Made by a program: the position numbers and the translations under genes
Sequence record: MZ234031.1
DNA length: 64,000 bases
DNA from: Escherichia phage vB_EcoM-CHD94UKE2
Direction: 5' to 3' (one strand)
Shown: in pieces, positions 4,100 through 50,450 of the stretch
How positions within the stretch are numbered: position 1 is the stretch's first letter
Layout: every line of letters begins with the position of its first letter
Notes under the pieces: generated by a model
Seen by the model: only the letters and a program-made list of their open reading frames with translations
The model's database searches: none
What the model was told of the DNA's origin: nothing

Positions 4100-4267
4100 A
4101 TGTCAGATAAGATTTGTGTTGTCTGTAAAACTCCAATCGATTCTGCATTGGTTGTTGAAACAGACAAAGGTCCTGTACATCCTGGGCCTTGCTATAATTA
4201 CATTAAAGAACTACCAGTTTCAGAAAGTTCGGAAGAACAATTAAATGAAACGCAACTTTTGCTATAG
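4100..4267 (+). CDS. small Cys-containing hypothetical protein (55 aa; uvsY.-2-like position)
   Basis: ATG 4100 preceded by GAGGAG RBS; MSDKICVVCKTPIDSALVVETDKGPVHPGPCYNY...; CxxC plus C motif; below ORF-track size cutoff. Confidence 0.5.
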   Translation: MSDKICVVCKTPIDSALVVETDKGPVHPGPCYNYIKELPVSESSEEQLNETQLLL

Positions 4268-4290
4268 TGTGACCTTTAGTCTATAGTTTT

Positions 4291-4319
4291 GGCCCTTCCT
4301 TTTTGGTTGGGCCTTTTTT
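4291..4319 (+). terminator. putative intrinsic terminator after ORF 4100 (convergent with uvsW.1)
   Basis: GGCCC...GGGCC stem followed by TTTTTT. Confidence 0.45.
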
Positions 4320-4322
4320 AAT

Positions 4323-4553
4323 TTAAAAGCTTTCTTCTACTTCATCGTCTGAATCTTCTAATTCAGCTCTTTTTCCTGCCAAAGCATCTCTGACTGAGAT
4401 GTCATCAGTATCTTTTAATTCAGTTTCTTTAACTCTTTTCTTATAATAAGCTTCAAGTTCTTCTAAACCTTCTAATGTTTGACAAGAGGCAATTTTACCC
4501 ATAAATTCATCAATAGAAGCTTCATAAAGAAATTGTTTAAATTCTAGTAACAT
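4323..4553 (-). CDS. uvsW.1: UvsW.1-like small protein
   Basis: ORF track starts at TTG (4565); first ATG in frame at 4551-4553 gives 76 aa (MLLEFKQFLYEA...). Confidence 0.7.
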   Translation of the reverse strand: MLLEFKQFLYEASIDEFMGKIASCQTLEGLEELEAYYKKRVKETELKDTDDISVRDALAGKRAELEDSDDEVEESF

Positions 4554-43257: not shown

Positions 43258-43515
43258 ATGAAAACTTTCAAAGAGTTTGCTACAAAAACTACTATCACTG
43301 AATCTTCCCACGGTATGGAAGTAAAGCTTGGAATGGCTTTAGCTGAAGCTGAGCGTCTTTTCTCTCGTATTAAAGAACTTGCTGCTGCGGTCGATCCTTC
43401 ATCTTTTAAAGGAGACCAAACTAAAGTTAAAGCACTTTTAGCATTATGCTCCGATGCAGGAGAAATTGCTAAAAATGGTTCTAAGATGAAGAAACGATTA
43501 GAAGATTTAAAATAA
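43258..43515 (+). CDS. internal-protein-like small protein with degenerate capsid-targeting leader
   Basis: 85 aa, MKTFKEFATKTTITE|SSH (ITE fits gp21 (I/L)xE cleavage motif); paralog of ORF 51409; preceded by early promoter stem-loop. Confidence 0.6.
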   Translation: MKTFKEFATKTTITESSHGMEVKLGMALAEAERLFSRIKELAAAVDPSSFKGDQTKVKALLALCSDAGEIAKNGSKMKKRLEDLK

Positions 43516-44849: not shown

Positions 44850-44922
44850 TGGGAATTAGCCAAGTTGGTAAGGCACTGGATTTTGATTCCAGGATGCAAA
44901 GGTTCGAGTCCTTTATTCCCAG
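44850..44922 (+). tRNA. tRNA-Gln (anticodon UUG)
   Basis: cloverleaf read by hand: acceptor TGGGAAT/ATTCCCA, anticodon loop TTTTGAT, T-loop GGTTCGAGTCC. Confidence 0.85.
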
Positions 44923-44923
44923 C

Positions 44924-45010
44924 GCGAGAATGGCCAAATTGGTAAAGGCACAGCACTTAAAATGCTGCGGAATGATTTCCTTGTGGGTTCGAGTCCCACT
45001 TCTCGCACCA
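44924..45010 (+). tRNA. tRNA-Leu (anticodon UAA), type II with long variable arm, CCA encoded
   Basis: acceptor GCGAGAA/TTCTCGC, anticodon stem CAGCA/TGCTG loop CTTAAAA. Confidence 0.85.
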
Positions 45011-45015
45011 AATTT

Positions 45016-45089
<74 letters not shown>

Positions 45090-45099
45090 ATTTAATTTA

Positions 45100-45173
45100 C
45101 TCCGTGTAGCTCAGTTTGGTAGAGCGTCTGCTTTGGGAGCAGAATGTCGTAGGTTCAAATCCTGCCACGGAGA
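45100..45173 (+). tRNA. tRNA-Pro (anticodon UGG)
   Basis: acceptor CTCCGTG/CACGGAG, anticodon stem TCTGC/GCAGA loop TTTGGGA. Confidence 0.8.
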
Positions 45174-45175
45174 CT

Positions 45176-45265
45176 GGAGGCGTGGCAGAGTGGTTTAATG
45201 CACCGGTCTTGAAAACCGGCAGTCGCTCCGGCGACTCATAGGTTCAAATCCTATCGCCGCCGCCA
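45176..45265 (+). tRNA. tRNA-Ser (anticodon UGA), type II
   Basis: anticodon stem CCGGT... loop CTTGAAA, variable-arm hairpin GTCGC/GCGAC, T-loop GGTTCAAATCC, CCA encoded; acceptor position 3:70 reads A:G. Confidence 0.8.
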
Positions 45266-45270
45266 GTTTT

Positions 45271-45346
45271 GCTGATTTAGCTCAGTAGGTAGAGCAACTC
45301 ACTTGTAATGAGAAGGTCGGCGGTTCGATTCCGTCAATCAGCACCA
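45271..45346 (+). tRNA. tRNA-Thr (anticodon UGU)
   Basis: acceptor GCTGATT/AATCAGC, anticodon loop CTTGTAA, CCA encoded. Confidence 0.8.
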
Positions 45347-45347
45347 A

Positions 45348-45422
45348 GGCCCTGTAGCTGGAAGGTTCAAGCAAGCGACTCATAATCGCCAGATGGTGGT
45401 TCAATTCCACCCAGGGCCACCA
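45348..45422 (+). tRNA. tRNA-Ile (anticodon CAU, presumably lysidine-modified to read AUA as in T4)
   Basis: acceptor GGCCCTG/CAGGGCC, anticodon loop CTCATAA, CCA encoded. Confidence 0.75.
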
Positions 45423-45431
45423 AATTAATTT

Positions 45432-45518
45432 GGGGAGTTATCCCGTAGAGGTAGCGGTGTGGACTGTAAATCCATTGTCATTGCGACTCGGGTGGTTCGA
45501 CTCCACCATTCCCCACCA
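45432..45518 (+). tRNA. tRNA-Tyr-like (anticodon GUA), type II; D-arm atypical
   Basis: acceptor GGGGAGT/ATTCCCC (one G-U), anticodon stem GTGGA/TCCAT loop CTGTAAA, long variable arm, T-arm GGTGG-TTCGACT-CCACC, CCA encoded. Confidence 0.6.
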
Positions 45519-45522
45519 ATTT

Positions 45523-45597
45523 GGATGTGTAGCTCAATGGCAGAGCGATCGCCTGTTAAGCGATTGGTTATAGGTTCGAATCCTATCACGTCCGCCA
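45523..45597 (+). tRNA. tRNA-Asn (anticodon GUU)
   Basis: acceptor GGATGTG/CACGTCC, D-stem GCTC/GAGC, anticodon stem ATCGC/GCGAT loop CTGTTAA, CCA encoded. Confidence 0.8.
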
Positions 45598-45601
45598 AAT
45601 T

Positions 45602-45617
45602 TGTGACAACTGTCACA
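45602..45617. repeat. perfect palindrome TGTGACA-AC-TGTCACA in spacer between tRNA-Asn and tRNA-His
   Basis: read directly; 7-bp inverted repeat with 2-nt spacer. Confidence 0.7.
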
Positions 45618-45711
45618 TTAATATCTACTTGACGCGATTATAGGGGTTGAACTGATCACTCTTCTCTTAATTTCGTGTGAAGACATCTTGATTGTTGGAG
45701 TAGGTATTAAT

Positions 45712-45787
45712 GTGGCCGTAGTTCAGTTGGTAGAACTCGAGATTGTGATTCTCGTAGTCATGGGTTCGACTCCCATCGGTCACCCCA
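45712..45787 (+). tRNA. tRNA-His (anticodon GUG)
   Basis: acceptor GTGGCCG/CGGTCAC, D-stem GTTC/GAAC, anticodon stem CGAGA/TCTCG loop TTGTGAT, discriminator C, CCA encoded. Confidence 0.8.
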
Positions 45788-45791
45788 ATTA

Positions 45792-45867
45792 CGGGGCATA
45801 GCTCAGAAGGAAGAGCAAGGACCTTCTAAGTCCTAGGTCGTAGGTTCGATCCCTACTGCCTCGACCA
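45792..45867 (+). tRNA. tRNA-Arg (anticodon UCU)
   Basis: acceptor CGGGGCA/TGCCTCG, anticodon stem AGGAC/GTCCT loop CTTCTAA, CCA encoded. Confidence 0.85.
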
Positions 45868-46236: not shown

Positions 46237-46571
46237 GAAACCGGGTCGCTACCGGTAAGTCGTCGGACTGATGTTCCCTGGAGTATAGTTTCTCCCACAG
46301 TTTTACTGTGTTCTGATTCTTTACTATCACAGCAGAAACGGCGCACAGAATTATCGATTCGAGGAAATATCTTTGCCGTAAGCCGAGTAGCGTTTTTGAC
46401 GGAACGTTCGGATATGGTCGAGATATGGCCTTTTAAAAATATTAAGTAGCGTCAACTGCTTAATAACCGGGTTCGAATCCCGGCGTTTCGTACAAACACT
46501 TGCCTTAGCAGGTGGAACCCCGACAAGGTTGCCGCAAGGCTTAGCCCCGACCGAAAGGTTGGGGCTTTTTA
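46237..46571 (+). ncRNA. candidate structured non-coding RNA region with tRNA-like T-arm motif, ending in strong intrinsic terminator
   Basis: about 330 nt without plausible ORF; GC-richer than surroundings; CCGGGTTCGAATCCCGG T-arm-like element; terminator hairpin 46543-46566 plus T5. Confidence 0.3.
46543..46571 (+). terminator. strong intrinsic terminator ending the non-coding region
   Basis: AGCCCCGACC-GAAA-GGTTGGGGCT (10-bp stem, GNRA loop) plus TTTTT. Confidence 0.75.
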
Positions 46572-46660: not shown

Positions 46661-47224
46661 ATGAAAACCTATGCCGAGTTTTTAACCGAAGCAGCAAAAT
46701 TACCATCTGAAGCAGATCTTACTAAAGTATTCTTCCACTTGGACCCAAAAGACCGCGGCGATTTTCTTAAGTGGAAAGCTAAAGCTATTGAAATGTATAA
46801 CATTGATAATAGTTCTTTTACGATGAGTCAAGAAAATAAATTCAATAAAGCATTTTTCAAAATTTCTAAGAAACTGGCATCTGGCGCTCAGGTTCCTAAA
46901 TCTGCCTTAGCTACTCCTGAACGTGCACCTGTCAAAATTTCTAAGAATATGTTCGACACTAAAAAATACGTTAATGCTTTGAATAAAGCTCTTGATGCAT
47001 TGGATGATGCAAAGAAGGCAGCCCGTGATCTTCAAGATGTGTACACCGATTTTGATCGTAAAACTAAAGGTTCTATTTCAAATAGCGAACGCAATAGTGT
47101 AAGTGTTTATTCTGATAGTCTTGATGTTCTTGGCGATGCGTATACTGAAATTAAAAATCGTATTAACACCGCATCTAAGCTAAAAGCTGCCGCAGAAGCT
47201 ATAATAACTAAACTAGATAAATAA
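46661..47224 (+). CDS. internal-protein-like protein with capsid-targeting leader (187 aa)
   Basis: MKTYAEFLTE|AAKLPSEADL...; LTE fits gp21 cleavage motif; terminator follows. Confidence 0.7.
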   Translation: MKTYAEFLTEAAKLPSEADLTKVFFHLDPKDRGDFLKWKAKAIEMYNIDNSSFTMSQENKFNKAFFKISKKLASGAQVPKSALATPERAPVKISKNMFDTKKYVNALNKALDALDDAKKAARDLQDVYTDFDRKTKGSISNSERNSVSVYSDSLDVLGDAYTEIKNRINTASKLKAAAEAIITKLDK

Positions 47225-47232
47225 TTTTAAAT

Positions 47233-47256
47233 CCCTATCTAAATGATAGGGTTTTT
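47233..47256 (+). terminator. intrinsic terminator after ORF 46661
   Basis: CCCTATC-TAAAT-GATAGGG plus TTTTT. Confidence 0.7.
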
Positions 47257-47796: not shown

Positions 47797-47973
47797 ATGA
47801 CTACTTTAACTATTTGGTTTGACGAAAATGAAGAAACATACTGTGTGAACATTGATGAAAGTCCAATGCCTGACTTTGAATCTTCAGATAAGAAGTCGGT
47901 TATATCTTGGGCTGAAGGTTATAAAGCAGCAAAAGGCGATGTTAAAATAGTTTATAAACTCTTTGAAATATAA
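47797..47973 (+). CDS. small hypothetical protein (58 aa)
   Basis: ATG preceded by ACGGAGAAATAA RBS; MTTLTIWFDENEETYCVNIDE... Confidence 0.4.
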   Translation: MTTLTIWFDENEETYCVNIDESPMPDFESSDKKSVISWAEGYKAAKGDVKIVYKLFEI

Positions 47974-48016
47974 TATTCTCACGGATTTTAAATCTTAATC
48001 AACCTAAGGAAATACT

Positions 48017-48610
48017 ATGAACACACTGAAGAAAATTGTTGAGTTTATTCGCACTAAACTTGGTTCTGCTATGGCTAAGAATCTATCTGTTGAAGAACAG
48101 TATACTGCTGCAGCAGCAAAACTGCTTGATAAAATTAAAGACCTAAAAACTGCTTCTGTTAAATCTATTAATGAAGAAAAACGTATTCGTGAACTTGTTA
48201 TCGAAAAGAATCGACAAGCCGAATCAAAAGAGCGTGAAATTCGTAAACTTCTTTCCGAAGGTCAAGATGTAACAATGCATGCTAAACTCGGTTTACTATA
48301 TCGTCGAACAGCTGAGCAGTTGACTACTAAAGCTGATGGTTATGCTGAAATGCGAATTGAAATCGCCAAGAAAGTAGTTGAGTTAGATGATGCTCGCCAA
48401 GAACTTGCAGTTAAATTGGAATATATCCGTGAAACTCGTGCAGCAAATGCCCTTGGAATTAGTACTGCCGATGATGTAGTTGAAATTGCAGCACTGACTA
48501 AGGTTGATATTGAAGATACTCTTGCTCGAGTTGAAACCTTTAATGGCAATATTTCTGGGGTTGAAACCACCTCTGCTGATGTTCAGGAATACATTAATTC
48601 TCTGAAATAA
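48017..48610 (+). CDS. coiled-coil protein, possibly PspA/IM30-like (speculative)
   Basis: 197 aa, heptad-rich, Ala/Glu/Lys/Arg-rich helices; hairpin terminator-like element downstream. Confidence 0.6.
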
Positions 48611-48615
48611 TGATA

Positions 48616-48631
48616 AGGGGCTTCGGCCCCT
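48616..48631 (+). other. stable hairpin after ORF 48017 (UUCG tetraloop)
   Basis: AGGGGC-TTCG-GCCCCT; weak T-tract, so possibly RNA stability element rather than terminator. Confidence 0.5.
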
Positions 48632-48651: not shown

Positions 48652-49260
48652 ATGAGAATGCAAAATGATTTCAATTCAATGGTTGAAGAGTTCCAAAGAC
48701 AGGTTGATGTTCCAGACCAATTACTGAATGCTCTTAAACGTATGGCAGAAGGACGTAATTACTATTGGGGGTCTTCATATGAAACTGACGAAAGTCTTTC
48801 TGGAAGATTTTATAGAGGTAAAAAGTCTTTAATACGCCCTGGAATACTCATTAAAAGTATTGAATCAATTCATTCATTGACGTGTGATTTTGATGTTGAA
48901 TTTACTGATTTCATTTCTCCTGAATGGACAGTTTGTTATTTAAACGACGATTATGATTATCTTGGCGTTTATAGTTTAAGTGACGCATGGTTTAAACGTA
49001 ATTTACAAAAGTCAAATTTATTTTATATTGATACTACGGTAAAATTTCAGGGAAAGAAATATTTCTTTACTCTTATAGTTGACTCTGAAACAAAATATGA
49101 AAATAAGCGTATTCTTAGTAAAAAGAATATCTTGACTATTATTGATGATCTTTTTGATAAATTCGTGGAAAATCCCAGTTTTGAAAGCGATTTATTACTA
49201 GAAAAATTTGTTAAGGAATGTAGAGAATATGTCAAAGCCATCACTATACCTTCCAAGTAA
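48652..49260 (+). CDS. hypothetical protein
   Basis: 202 aa; C-terminal FVKECREY region encoded over the ribosome-binding region of the next gene. Confidence 0.6.
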   Translation: MRMQNDFNSMVEEFQRQVDVPDQLLNALKRMAEGRNYYWGSSYETDESLSGRFYRGKKSLIRPGILIKSIESIHSLTCDFDVEFTDFISPEWTVCYLNDDYDYLGVYSLSDAWFKRNLQKSNLFYIDTTVKFQGKKYFFTLIVDSETKYENKRILSKKNILTIIDDLFDKFVENPSFESDLLLEKFVKECREYVKAITIPSK

Positions 49261-49621
49261 ACCTTTGAAATATGAACTAAAGCGCCAGATAATTTCTACC
49301 GATGCATTAATGGGTCCTGTGGTAGCTGTATCATTTGTAATTCTACTGATTGCTGGAATGGTTATAGACGTTATGACAGATATTGAATCTGGCGTAATAT
49401 TTGGAGCAACGTTAATTCTTCCATTAGTAGTTCCATTTTTATTGGTACCTGTAAATTGGGTAGGATACTGGTATCAAGGAAGGCATTATCGTAAACGCGT
49501 ACGTGAATGGAAAGCTCAGTGTAAAAAGATTAAAAAGGAACACCAGCTTAAACTAGATATGTATGAATTTAACGAAATTATGAAATTTGTTAAGGAATCA
49601 CGATGCAAAAGCCAAAACTAA
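49229..49621 (+). CDS. two-TM membrane protein, paralog family member A
   Basis: track start TTG 49208; ATG 49229 after AAGGAA; two hydrophobic helices; C-terminal FVKESRCK. Confidence 0.6.
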   Translation: MSKPSLYLPSKPLKYELKRQIISTDALMGPVVAVSFVILLIAGMVIDVMTDIESGVIFGATLILPLVVPFLLVPVNWVGYWYQGRHYRKRVREWKAQCKKIKKEHQLKLDMYEFNEIMKFVKESRCKSQN

Positions 49622-49965
49622 ATAAAGTCAAATATTCGTTTCTTGAGGCACTATTAATTCTTGCCGTATCAGTATTTGCAGCTCTTGCGGGTAGTCTTAT
49701 TGGACTAATGATTGACTGTTTTATTTTAAACGTCGATAGTTCAGCAATTATAACAGAGGTTTGGAGCGAACTTCGTTATACTATAGCGATTTCATTATTT
49801 TCATTCTTTGGTACTATACTATATTTTCATTATGATAATTTTAAAATAAATTGGCAAAGAAAAAAGGATTATAAAATACAATTAAAAGAATATAACAACT
49901 ACATGTCTTATATTGAAAATGAATCAATGAAAGAGTTTGTGAGTGATTGTAGGAAAATCAGATGA
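49603..49965 (+). CDS. two-TM membrane protein, paralog family member B
   Basis: 120 aa; N-terminus MQKPKL similar to member A MSKPSL; C-terminal FVSDCRKI. Confidence 0.6.
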   Translation: MQKPKLNKVKYSFLEALLILAVSVFAALAGSLIGLMIDCFILNVDSSAIITEVWSELRYTIAISLFSFFGTILYFHYDNFKINWQRKKDYKIQLKEYNNYMSYIENESMKEFVSDCRKIR

Positions 49966-50450
49966 TTTTAAAAACTCGCTGGTATGATTTAGATGATGGG
50001 GATGATGGCATTCCAGTTGATAGAGTTGACTGGAATGGCTGTTCCGAAGATATGAAAAATTTGCTGATTAGGGAGTTTAGAATGGGATATCAACCAGTTA
50101 AGCCATCTACTGCAACAGATGATAAATTCGTGTGTATTCATAATGGTCGCGCTAAATTAACGAACGCTGATTGGTTCACAGATAAAATTATGATTCTGTG
50201 GTATATTATTAGTCTTCCTGTGACATCATTCGTATTTTACTTTTTTATAAAAAATCCAATGGACAGAATAGGAGATTGGATTCTTTTAACCATACTTGTT
50301 AATATTTTTACAGCAGCAATACTATCAGGAATATGGTGCGTGTTCATTGAAATGCCATGGCGGTTACGCAGGCAGCAAAAGATTTTTGATGAAAAGAAAT
50401 ATACTCAAAATTTAAATAACTTTATTACTGAATGCAGGAAATTAAAATGA
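49962..50450 (+). CDS. two-TM membrane protein, paralog family member C
   Basis: 162 aa; hydrophobic helices; C-terminal FITECRKL; ATGA coupling at both ends. Confidence 0.6.
   Translation: MILKTRWYDLDDGDDGIPVDRVDWNGCSEDMKNLLIREFRMGYQPVKPSTATDDKFVCIHNGRAKLTNADWFTDKIMILWYIISLPVTSFVFYFFIKNPMDRIGDWILLTILVNIFTAAILSGIWCVFIEMPWRLRRQQKIFDEKKYTQNLNNFITECRKLK

Follow-up and report, generated by a model that had tools for sequence, protein, structure and literature searches.

We analysed a 64,000-nucleotide stretch of Escherichia phage vB_EcoM-CHD94UKE2 (sequence record MZ234031.1; hereafter the window, meaning that whole stretch) and propose a family and a role for its gene e.6. We suggest that e.6 encodes a cytoplasmic protein of the early-to-middle period of infection, and that this protein belongs to the PspA/IM30(Vipp1)/ESCRT-III superfamily as a very divergent member confined to phages, with an inferred role at the inner membrane. 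For this explanation as a whole, we estimate a probability of roughly 0.7. Its parts differ in strength: homology to PspA and Vipp1 over helices alpha0 to alpha3 is very likely, and a membrane-associated maintenance role, argued by analogy with the superfamily, is somewhat better than an even bet.

The gene itself is genuine. The open reading frame (ORF) occupies positions 48017-48610 of the + strand, from its ATG to the TAA at 48608-48610, and encodes 197 amino acids (aa). It corresponds to T4 gene e.6 (NP_049742, UniProt P39224), with 98.5% identity to the T4 protein, and the segment that contains it matches the Tequatrovirus Escherichia phage vB_EcoM-G3F7 at 100% identity over 4.1 kb. We can discard a chance ORF because tblastn retrieved 1099 phage records (33-100% identity), because the protein matches PHROG 1203 –'unknown function'– almost end to end (E = 1.6e-87, residues 1-197 against profile positions 1-199 of 200), and because the T4 protein has been detected by mass spectrometry, its RNA being classed as early and its protein as middle (supplement of PMC9697503). 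UniProt labels P39224 an 'uncharacterized 22.0 kDa protein in e-segB intergenic region', and the T4 reference NC_000866 calls it a conserved hypothetical protein.

The family is found in phages of Aeromonas, Klebsiella, Serratia, Erwinia, and other hosts. An exhaustive profile search of 1.84 billion cluster representatives retrieved 45 e.6-family clusters, all of about 200 aa. The lineage appears to be phage-restricted, since a scan of the genome contigs of bacterial species-representative genomes found no relative.

At the sequence level, the link to Vipp1 comes from profiles built on a 38-sequence family alignment (A2), a T4-type subgroup alignment (A1), and an Ackermann-type subgroup (A4). 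Against the PDB, the A2 profile retrieved Synechocystis Vipp1 as its top sequence match (E = 9.9e-5, residues 1-146 to 1-147), in an alignment that takes in alpha0, the alpha0-alpha1 linker, and the glycine of the hairpin tip; E. coli PspA had E = 1.3. The A4 profile gave collinear alignments to Nostoc Vipp1 (E = 2.3e-5) and E. coli PspA (E = 0.16). The A1 profile found Vipp1 only at E = 2-5 (collinear, 4-142 to 4-144), which we treat as a lead and not as evidence.

Pfam provided another route. When each A2 member was scanned, 5 of the 38 matched PF04012 (PspA_IM30), and two of them, P0066 with 39.0 bits (E = 8.9e-10) and P0065 with 35.1 bits, exceeded its curated gathering cutoff (33.9 bits). 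Their residues 6-7 to 146 align to positions 2-3 to 143 of the 220 in the profile, with no competing family (next-best families at E >= 0.03). Members of this type are orthologs carried by Ackermannviridae, Kuttervirus FEC14 and Taipeivirus IME250 being examples. BLASTP connects e.6 to P0065 (E = 1e-16) and P0066 (E = 1e-13) over about 195 aa, at 24-25% identity and nearly without gaps, and hhalign joins the T4-type and Ackermann-type alignments with 99.9% probability (E = 7e-32, 198 columns). Thus, as judged from these alignments, e.6 belongs to the PF04012 family transitively, via the orthologs that pass the cutoff. The precomputed Pfam field was '-' for all the T4-type homologs except two fragments, which carried unrelated families.

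Could e.6 be instead an analogous coiled-coil hairpin without PspA ancestry –a BAR-like curvature protein, a scaffold, or an adaptor– whose profile matches arose by convergence? We consider it improbable. Coiled-coil composition as the cause of the Vipp1 match was ruled out with shuffled and reversed sequences: the A2 hidden Markov model (HMM) gave the real Vipp1 N-terminal regions 28.0 and 23.6 bits, a score reached by none of 1000 residue shuffles (mean -2 to -3 bits, standard deviation about 2, maximum 15.0) and none of 1000 heptad-block shuffles (maximum 11.2 bits), while the reversed sequences gave -0.9 and 4.6 bits. The similarity therefore rests on the order of the residues, not on composition or periodicity. 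E. coli PspA scored 11.8 bits on the same HMM; no residue shuffle and a single block shuffle, out of 1000 each, came up to this value. Moreover, the matches to Vipp1 and PspA are the only ones that run collinear from residue 1 on both sides and include the hairpin-tip glycine, and the two orthologs that pass the Pfam cutoff do so unchallenged. As for BAR proteins, e.6 itself had no BAR match, and among the family members no BAR family came up to its cutoff, the best being BAR_3 in a single ortholog (E = 0.0026, 17.9 bits against a cutoff of 31.7).

The predicted structure agrees with the profiles. An AlphaFold2 model built on a 33-sequence alignment (mean predicted local distance difference test, pLDDT, 77; predicted template modelling score, pTM, 0.61) places residues 2-22, 25-80, 86-145, 151-160, 166-174, and 186-196 in helices. 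When compared by Foldseek (3Di plus amino acid) to 350,542 PDB chains, its ten best matches were all Vipp1/IM30, full-length over 172-225 columns, with E-values of 1.8e-3 to 8e-2 and probabilities of 0.97-1.0; a Vipp1 hairpin (6zvs_A) superposed at 3.3 A over 123 columns. The archaeal ESCRT-III protein CdvB2 ranked next after Vipp1, and PspA appeared at ranks 42-43. In BFVD, the matches beyond the family's own members included a giant-virus Snf7 and, from Acinetobacter phage ME3, a 'PspA/IM30 family protein'.

These results bear out an earlier sequence-only reading of this DNA, which had guessed at a PspA/IM30-like protein: the Foldseek ranking, the A2 match to Vipp1, the orthologs that pass the Pfam cutoff, and the shuffle controls all point to the same superfamily. 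That reading had also proposed structure prediction against the PspA/Vipp1/ESCRT-III fold as a check, and similarity was found both at the fold and at the sequence-profile level. Its description of an almost entirely helical protein rich in Ala, Glu, Lys, and Arg was accurate too, as the model displays and as these four residues account for 40.1% of the protein. The gene and the parts of its product are as follows, with coordinates of the window:

48006-48012, + strand: Shine-Dalgarno-like AAGGAAA, read from the sequence; it ends 4 nucleotides (nt) before the e.6 ATG, with its AAGGA core 6 nt upstream
48017-48610, + strand: e.6 coding sequence, 197 aa plus stop; putative divergent phage member of the PspA/IM30(Vipp1)/ESCRT-III superfamily
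48020-48082, + strand: residues 2-22, predicted N-terminal amphipathic helix, equivalent to the PspA/Vipp1 alpha0 (proposed to bind membrane); from the AlphaFold2 model and the Vipp1 alignment
48089-48256, + strand: residues 25-80, predicted helix alpha1, first arm of the ESCRT-III-type hairpin; pLDDT 84-97, collinear with Vipp1
48257-48271, + strand: residues 81-85, predicted hairpin tip E-G-Q-D-V; from the model and the Vipp1 alignment
48272-48451, + strand: residues 86-145, predicted helix alpha2/3, second arm of the hairpin; pLDDT 81-93, collinear with Vipp1 to about residue 146
48452-48607, + strand: residues 146-197, C-terminal region particular to the family, predicted to hold three short helices; from the model and the family alignment

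The hairpin of alpha1 and conjoined alpha2/alpha3 spans aa 24-142 in PspA (PMC8281802), and the 120-residue hairpin of the e.6 model agrees with it in its boundaries, so the hallmark of the superfamily is present in the prediction. Gly82 of the tip is conserved in the family and aligns to the glycine in the Vipp1 tip 'NGEEN'. The N-terminal helix aligns with Vipp1 residues 1-22; it has a hydrophobic moment of 0.45, compared to 0.49 for E. coli PspA and 0.61 for Vipp1, and a net charge of +3. The matches of the e.6 family end at about residue 146, and the Pfam match ends at profile position ~143-151 of 220. Beyond that point, helices 151-160, 166-174, and 186-196 are predicted with pLDDT of 44-90, and the best-conserved positions of the whole family, G147 and Y192, fall here. 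The sole C-terminal signal is a weak local resemblance of 'LARVETF' in e.6 to 'MARFESF' in PspA. By its sequence conservation, the region 146-197 is a family-specific module.

Several observations weigh against the proposed assignment and role. The e.6 protein alone had no PF04012 match at E <= 1 in the Pfam scan, only sub-threshold coiled-coil noise, and phmmer gave 0 matches for it in the PDB. The A1 alignment did not match the single E. coli PspA sequence by hhalign (probability 0.5%), and its profile scored 11 bits with Vipp1 and 0.6 bits with PspA. Even the orthologs that pass the PF04012 cutoff exceed it by only 1-5 bits, and the search of 1.84 billion representatives provided no bridge from the e.6 family into cellular PspA. 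On the structural side, the Foldseek E-values are modest (at least 1.8e-3) and the global root-mean-square deviations (RMSDs) are large, the latter probably because a compact (closed) monomer model was compared to open polymer subunits. The alpha0 region is modelled with low pLDDT (44-49), and its hydrophobic moment is marginal, being reached by 6.8% of shuffles (p about 0.07). The last 50 residues cannot be aligned by profile to PspA alpha4/alpha5, so the polymerisation contact between alpha5 and the hairpin tip is only conjectural for e.6. Regarding the genomic context, RB43-type and some Aeromonas-phage loci have no transmembrane (TM) protein in the next few ORFs, and the wider surroundings of e.6 vary by lineage. 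Searches of the literature on e.6, its accessions, phage PspA, and the label 'host specificity protein' found no functional study and no connection between e.6 and PspA. Membrane binding, oligomerisation, the physiological role, and interactions with the downstream proteins e.5, e.4, e.3, and e.2 are all features that we infer.

Among known systems, Vipp1/IM30 of cyanobacteria and chloroplasts (Synechocystis sll0617, Nostoc punctiforme; PDB 7o3w, 6zvr, 8qfv) is the best match to e.6 by both profile and Foldseek. Both proteins share an alpha1-alpha2/3 hairpin of equal length and register and the glycine at its tip, and e.6 has a predicted counterpart of the N-terminal amphipathic alpha0. However, identity is only ~14-18%, Vipp1 has ~260-270 aa instead of 197, and e.6 presents no alignable alpha4/alpha5, no alpha6, a C-terminal region of its own, and a phage origin with no thylakoid context. 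E. coli PspA (PF04012; PDB 4whe), the effector that protects the inner membrane from stress in the phage's own host, belongs to the same superfamily, is similar in size (222 aa), and is also linked to small integral membrane proteins, with a GC-rich intercistronic hairpin after its gene. Nevertheless, it is less similar to e.6 than Vipp1 (E = 0.16-1.3, 11.8-15.1 bits), and it is induced by sigma54/PspF, whereas e.6 is expressed from the early programme of the phage.

LiaH, the PspA-family protein of Bacillus recruited by the membrane anchor LiaI, offers another parallel, one of concept: small membrane proteins dedicated to recruiting a PspA-like protein, yet unrelated to PspB/PspC. The ortholog P0066 matched the NCBIfam LiaH model weakly and collinearly (E = 0.005, residues 7-137 to 3-134), far under the family cutoff; in contrast to that system, no LiaI or LiaF homologs occur at the e.6 locus. 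ESCRT-III proteins (CHMP1A/B, Snf7, archaeal CdvB2, Asgard ESCRT-IIIB) gave no sequence-level signal with e.6; they lack alpha0, and no Vps4-type ATPase partner was seen near e.6.

Phage genes of this kind have precedents. A pspA-like gene adjoins terD in Jug huge phages (PMC12880540), and the 'PspA/IM30 family protein' of Acinetobacter phage vB_AbaM_ME3 matched e.6 by Foldseek at E = 0.079. These proteins are near enough to cellular PspA for automatic annotation, whereas e.6 forms a separate and much more divergent lineage. Thus, the superfamily is known and so are phage pspA-like genes; e.6 would be new as an unrecognised, very divergent member, whose C-terminal module and set of candidate partners are particular to it.

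The similarity to PspA also allows a different role, in which e.6 would be a PspA mimic that acts on the host Psp circuit, binding PspF or PspB/PspC to silence or hijack the stress response. The homology spans exactly the hairpin region that, as generally known, makes the regulatory PspA-PspF contacts in E. coli, and the gene is transcribed early. However, e.6 is closer to cyanobacterial Vipp1, which has no PspF partner, than to E. coli PspA (E = 1e-4 against 1.3, 28.0 against 11.8 bits); T4 shuts off host transcription, which makes a repressor of one sigma54 operon near-redundant; and the family is spread over phages of many hosts and keeps its linkage to phage membrane proteins. We therefore regard mimicry as unlikely. 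A 'host specificity' or virion-associated protein, the product name that several orthologs carry in GenBank, RefSeq, and UniRef, is barely credible: the literature gave no basis for the name, neither PHROG 1203 nor the T4 reference supports it, the early RNA and middle protein are unlike those of late virion genes, and there is no similarity to tail-fibre or adhesin families.

Returning to e.6 as a PspA/Vipp1 relative, its surroundings add to the picture. The gene order is e.8, e.7, e.6, e.5, e.4, e.3, e.2, nudE, e (lysozyme), an unnamed ORF, and denV, in agreement with the T4 reference NC_000866 as far as gene e. The features downstream of e.6 are:

48616-48631, + strand: hairpin AGGGGC-UUCG-GCCCCU, 5 nt past the e.6 stop, free energy about -12 kcal/mol, no U-tract
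48652-49260, + strand: e.5, soluble, 202 aa; motif F186-V-K-E-C190-R191 at 49207-49224
49229-49621, + strand: e.4, 130 aa, two predicted TM helices and a basic tail; variant motif FVKESRC at 49586-49606
49603-49965, + strand: e.3, 120 aa, two predicted TM helices; motif FVSDCR at 49936-49953
49962-50450, + strand: e.2, 162 aa, soluble N-terminal ~70 residues and two predicted TM helices; motif FITECR at 50421-50438

The stable UUCG hairpin that the sequence-only reading had reported after e.6 is indeed there. It is not a canonical intrinsic terminator because it has no U-tract on the + strand, and it probably serves to separate e.6 from e.5 as a 3'-stabiliser or a partial terminator. In all 23 loci inspected from Straboviridae and Ackermannviridae (L013, L023, L030, L041, and L048 among them), the e.6 stop is closely followed by a GC-rich hairpin; the stems are unrelated, the loops are often UNCG or GNRA, and some are followed by a U-tract. 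Unlike the e.6-e.5 junction, the genes e.5, e.4, e.3, e.2, and nudE overlap or abut one another. A conserved hairpin after e.6 next to overlapping downstream genes fits differential expression, with e.6 in excess over its neighbours. In E. coli, pspA likewise has a GC-rich intercistronic hairpin at its 3' side, in the pspA-pspB spacer (L002 2757-2778). C(UUCG)G hairpins in T4 intercistronic regions are reportedly a classical observation, attributed to Tuerk et al. in 1988.

The same reading had placed e.6 upstream of a trio of membrane proteins within a phage-shock-like module, and both claims stand only in part. The trio exists, since e.4, e.3, and e.2 each have two predicted TM helices, but it is not adjacent: the soluble e.5 lies between. 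Regarding the module, the neighbours are not PspB/PspC homologs, although the linkage to membrane proteins does recur in two phage families. The four proteins e.5, e.4, e.3, and e.2 had no PspB/PspC match in Pfam at E <= 1, no NCBIfam match, and no PADLOC match; in Pfam and NCBIfam scans, no PspF, PspB, PspC, or PspD homologs were found near e.6, and the adjacency typical of Psp operons is absent. The neighbours showed no resemblance to any other known family either. The e.5 family profile had no relatives in the PDB or Pfam, and e.5 displayed no similarity to the downstream membrane protein of Kuttervirus. An alignment of e.4, e.3, and e.2 established a shared architecture and motif, and no paralogy beyond these.

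This C-terminal motif, F-[IV]-x-x-C-[RK], is common to e.5, e.3, and e.2, with the variant in e.4, and is usually preceded by L/I-x-x. It also ends the equivalent downstream proteins, soluble and two-TM alike, of distant Straboviridae (L005 4628-5927, L006 4780-5397, and many IMG/VR loci), and it was absent from all ~108 upstream ORFs scanned. Within the e.5 family (13-20% identity), F186, C190, and R191 make up three of the five invariant positions. A Shine-Dalgarno or gene-overlap artefact was rejected, as the arginine codon is CGN in 15 of 34 cases, about as often as AGR, and the next start lies from -1 to 155 nt away. This codon usage and spacing mark the motif as a protein-level signal, which may be a docking peptide. 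The charge distribution of e.4, e.3, and e.2, following the positive-inside rule, suggests that their C-terminal tails face the cytoplasm.

We compared the surroundings of e.6 in 27 loci from Straboviridae and Ackermannviridae and found that e.6 is genomically linked to small membrane proteins, a linkage conserved in these two phage families. In Straboviridae, a soluble e.5-like protein of 180-290 aa lies almost always 36-64 nt downstream of e.6 and is usually followed by one to three two-TM proteins of ~110-130 aa, which in most loci sit 0.6-1.4 kb downstream of e.6. The order in Ackermannviridae is the e.6 ortholog, a single-pass membrane protein (177-192 aa) immediately after it, a second small TM protein, and DNA ligase; neither TM protein has the F-[IV]-x-x-C-[RK] motif or resembles e.5 (L003 5647-6389; L007, L048, L049). 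Here, the PspA-like gene is accompanied by another set of membrane partners. The genomic positions differ as well: RB43 has e.6 between nrdD and nrdG, Aeromonas phage 65 has it by gp31, and in Ackermannviridae it lies between the primase-helicase and the ligase. Since the wider context varies between lineages, e.6 and its neighbours move as a block. In RB43 (L006 4001-4447), 'e.6' is annotated as 97 aa (4154-4447), yet the tblastn match covers query residues 52-197, which suggests that the gene model is truncated or mis-started, or that the gene is damaged.

Apart from e.6 and its neighbours, the window contains other features of this region. Eleven tRNA genes cluster at 44850-45867 (Gln, Leu, Gly, Pro, Ser, Thr, Met(CAT), Tyr, Asn, His, Arg), three more than the eight of T4. 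Six ORFs on the + strand, at 43258, 43587, 46661, 51409, 52169, and 52493, start with MK(T/M)(Y/F)xEF, which we take to be the capsid-targeting sequence of the T4 internal proteins IPI, IPII, and IPIII; at the DNA level the pattern has 6 matches against 0.1 expected by chance. This suggests that several head-packaged internal proteins flank the e.6 region, including the product of the 187-aa ORF at 46661-47224. Two canonical terminator-like hairpins with U-tracts lie on the + strand, one upstream of that ORF (46543-46566) and one just after it (47233-47251). When compared to T4 (NC_000866), e.2 has 162 aa here instead of the annotated 102, and e.7 (47797-47973) has 58 aa instead of 111.

At the functional level, we propose that the phage probably carries its own inner-membrane maintenance protein, by analogy with the superfamily. 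The membrane of a T4-infected cell faces damage from DNA injection, the insertion of many phage membrane proteins, and the accumulation of holin, whose triggering is sensitive to the proton-motive force. With host transcription shut off, the inducible sigma54/PspF-dependent Psp response of the host cannot be mounted. As its superfamily relatives do, e.6 would attach by alpha0 to the inner membrane on its cytoplasmic side and polymerise by side-by-side packing of its hairpins into carpets, rods, or rings. Such a polymer would stabilise or reseal the inner membrane of the infected cell and preserve the proton-motive force. The hairpin after the stop probably lets e.6 mRNA and protein build up above the products of the downstream genes, as expected of a polymer-forming protein.

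The part of the neighbours in this mechanism is more speculative. We think it possible, though doubtful, that the motif-bearing proteins are partners or recruiters of e.6; e.5, e.4, e.3, and e.2 would then recruit or regulate it via their C-terminal motif, in a PspB/PspC- or LiaI-like role without homology. In the same tentative spirit, e.6, e.5, and e.4/e.3/e.2 might make up an unrecognised phage membrane-maintenance module, with the e.6 polymer recruited via the F-[IV]-x-x-C-[RK] peptide of its neighbours. Such a module would maintain an energised inner membrane during infection. It would serve either to control the timing of the holin and lysis inhibition, or as a counter-defence that mends what membrane-disrupting abortive-infection effectors have damaged.

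Although T4 serves as the reference lytic phage, no function has been assigned to roughly half of its genes, e.6 among them. If our explanation is right, Straboviridae and Ackermannviridae carry their own version of the host membrane-stress effector, and a gene kept in more than 1000 genomes gains a concrete function to test. The shared C-terminal motif of the neighbours suggests a new coupling, distinct from PspB/PspC, of a PspA-like protein to its membrane partners. Under our explanation, it also becomes conceivable that phages overcome pore-forming defence effectors through membrane repair. Finally, T4-type phages would provide tractable genetics for the roles of bacterial ESCRT-III-like proteins in vivo, from resealing after DNA injection to maintenance of the proton-motive force and the timing of lysis.

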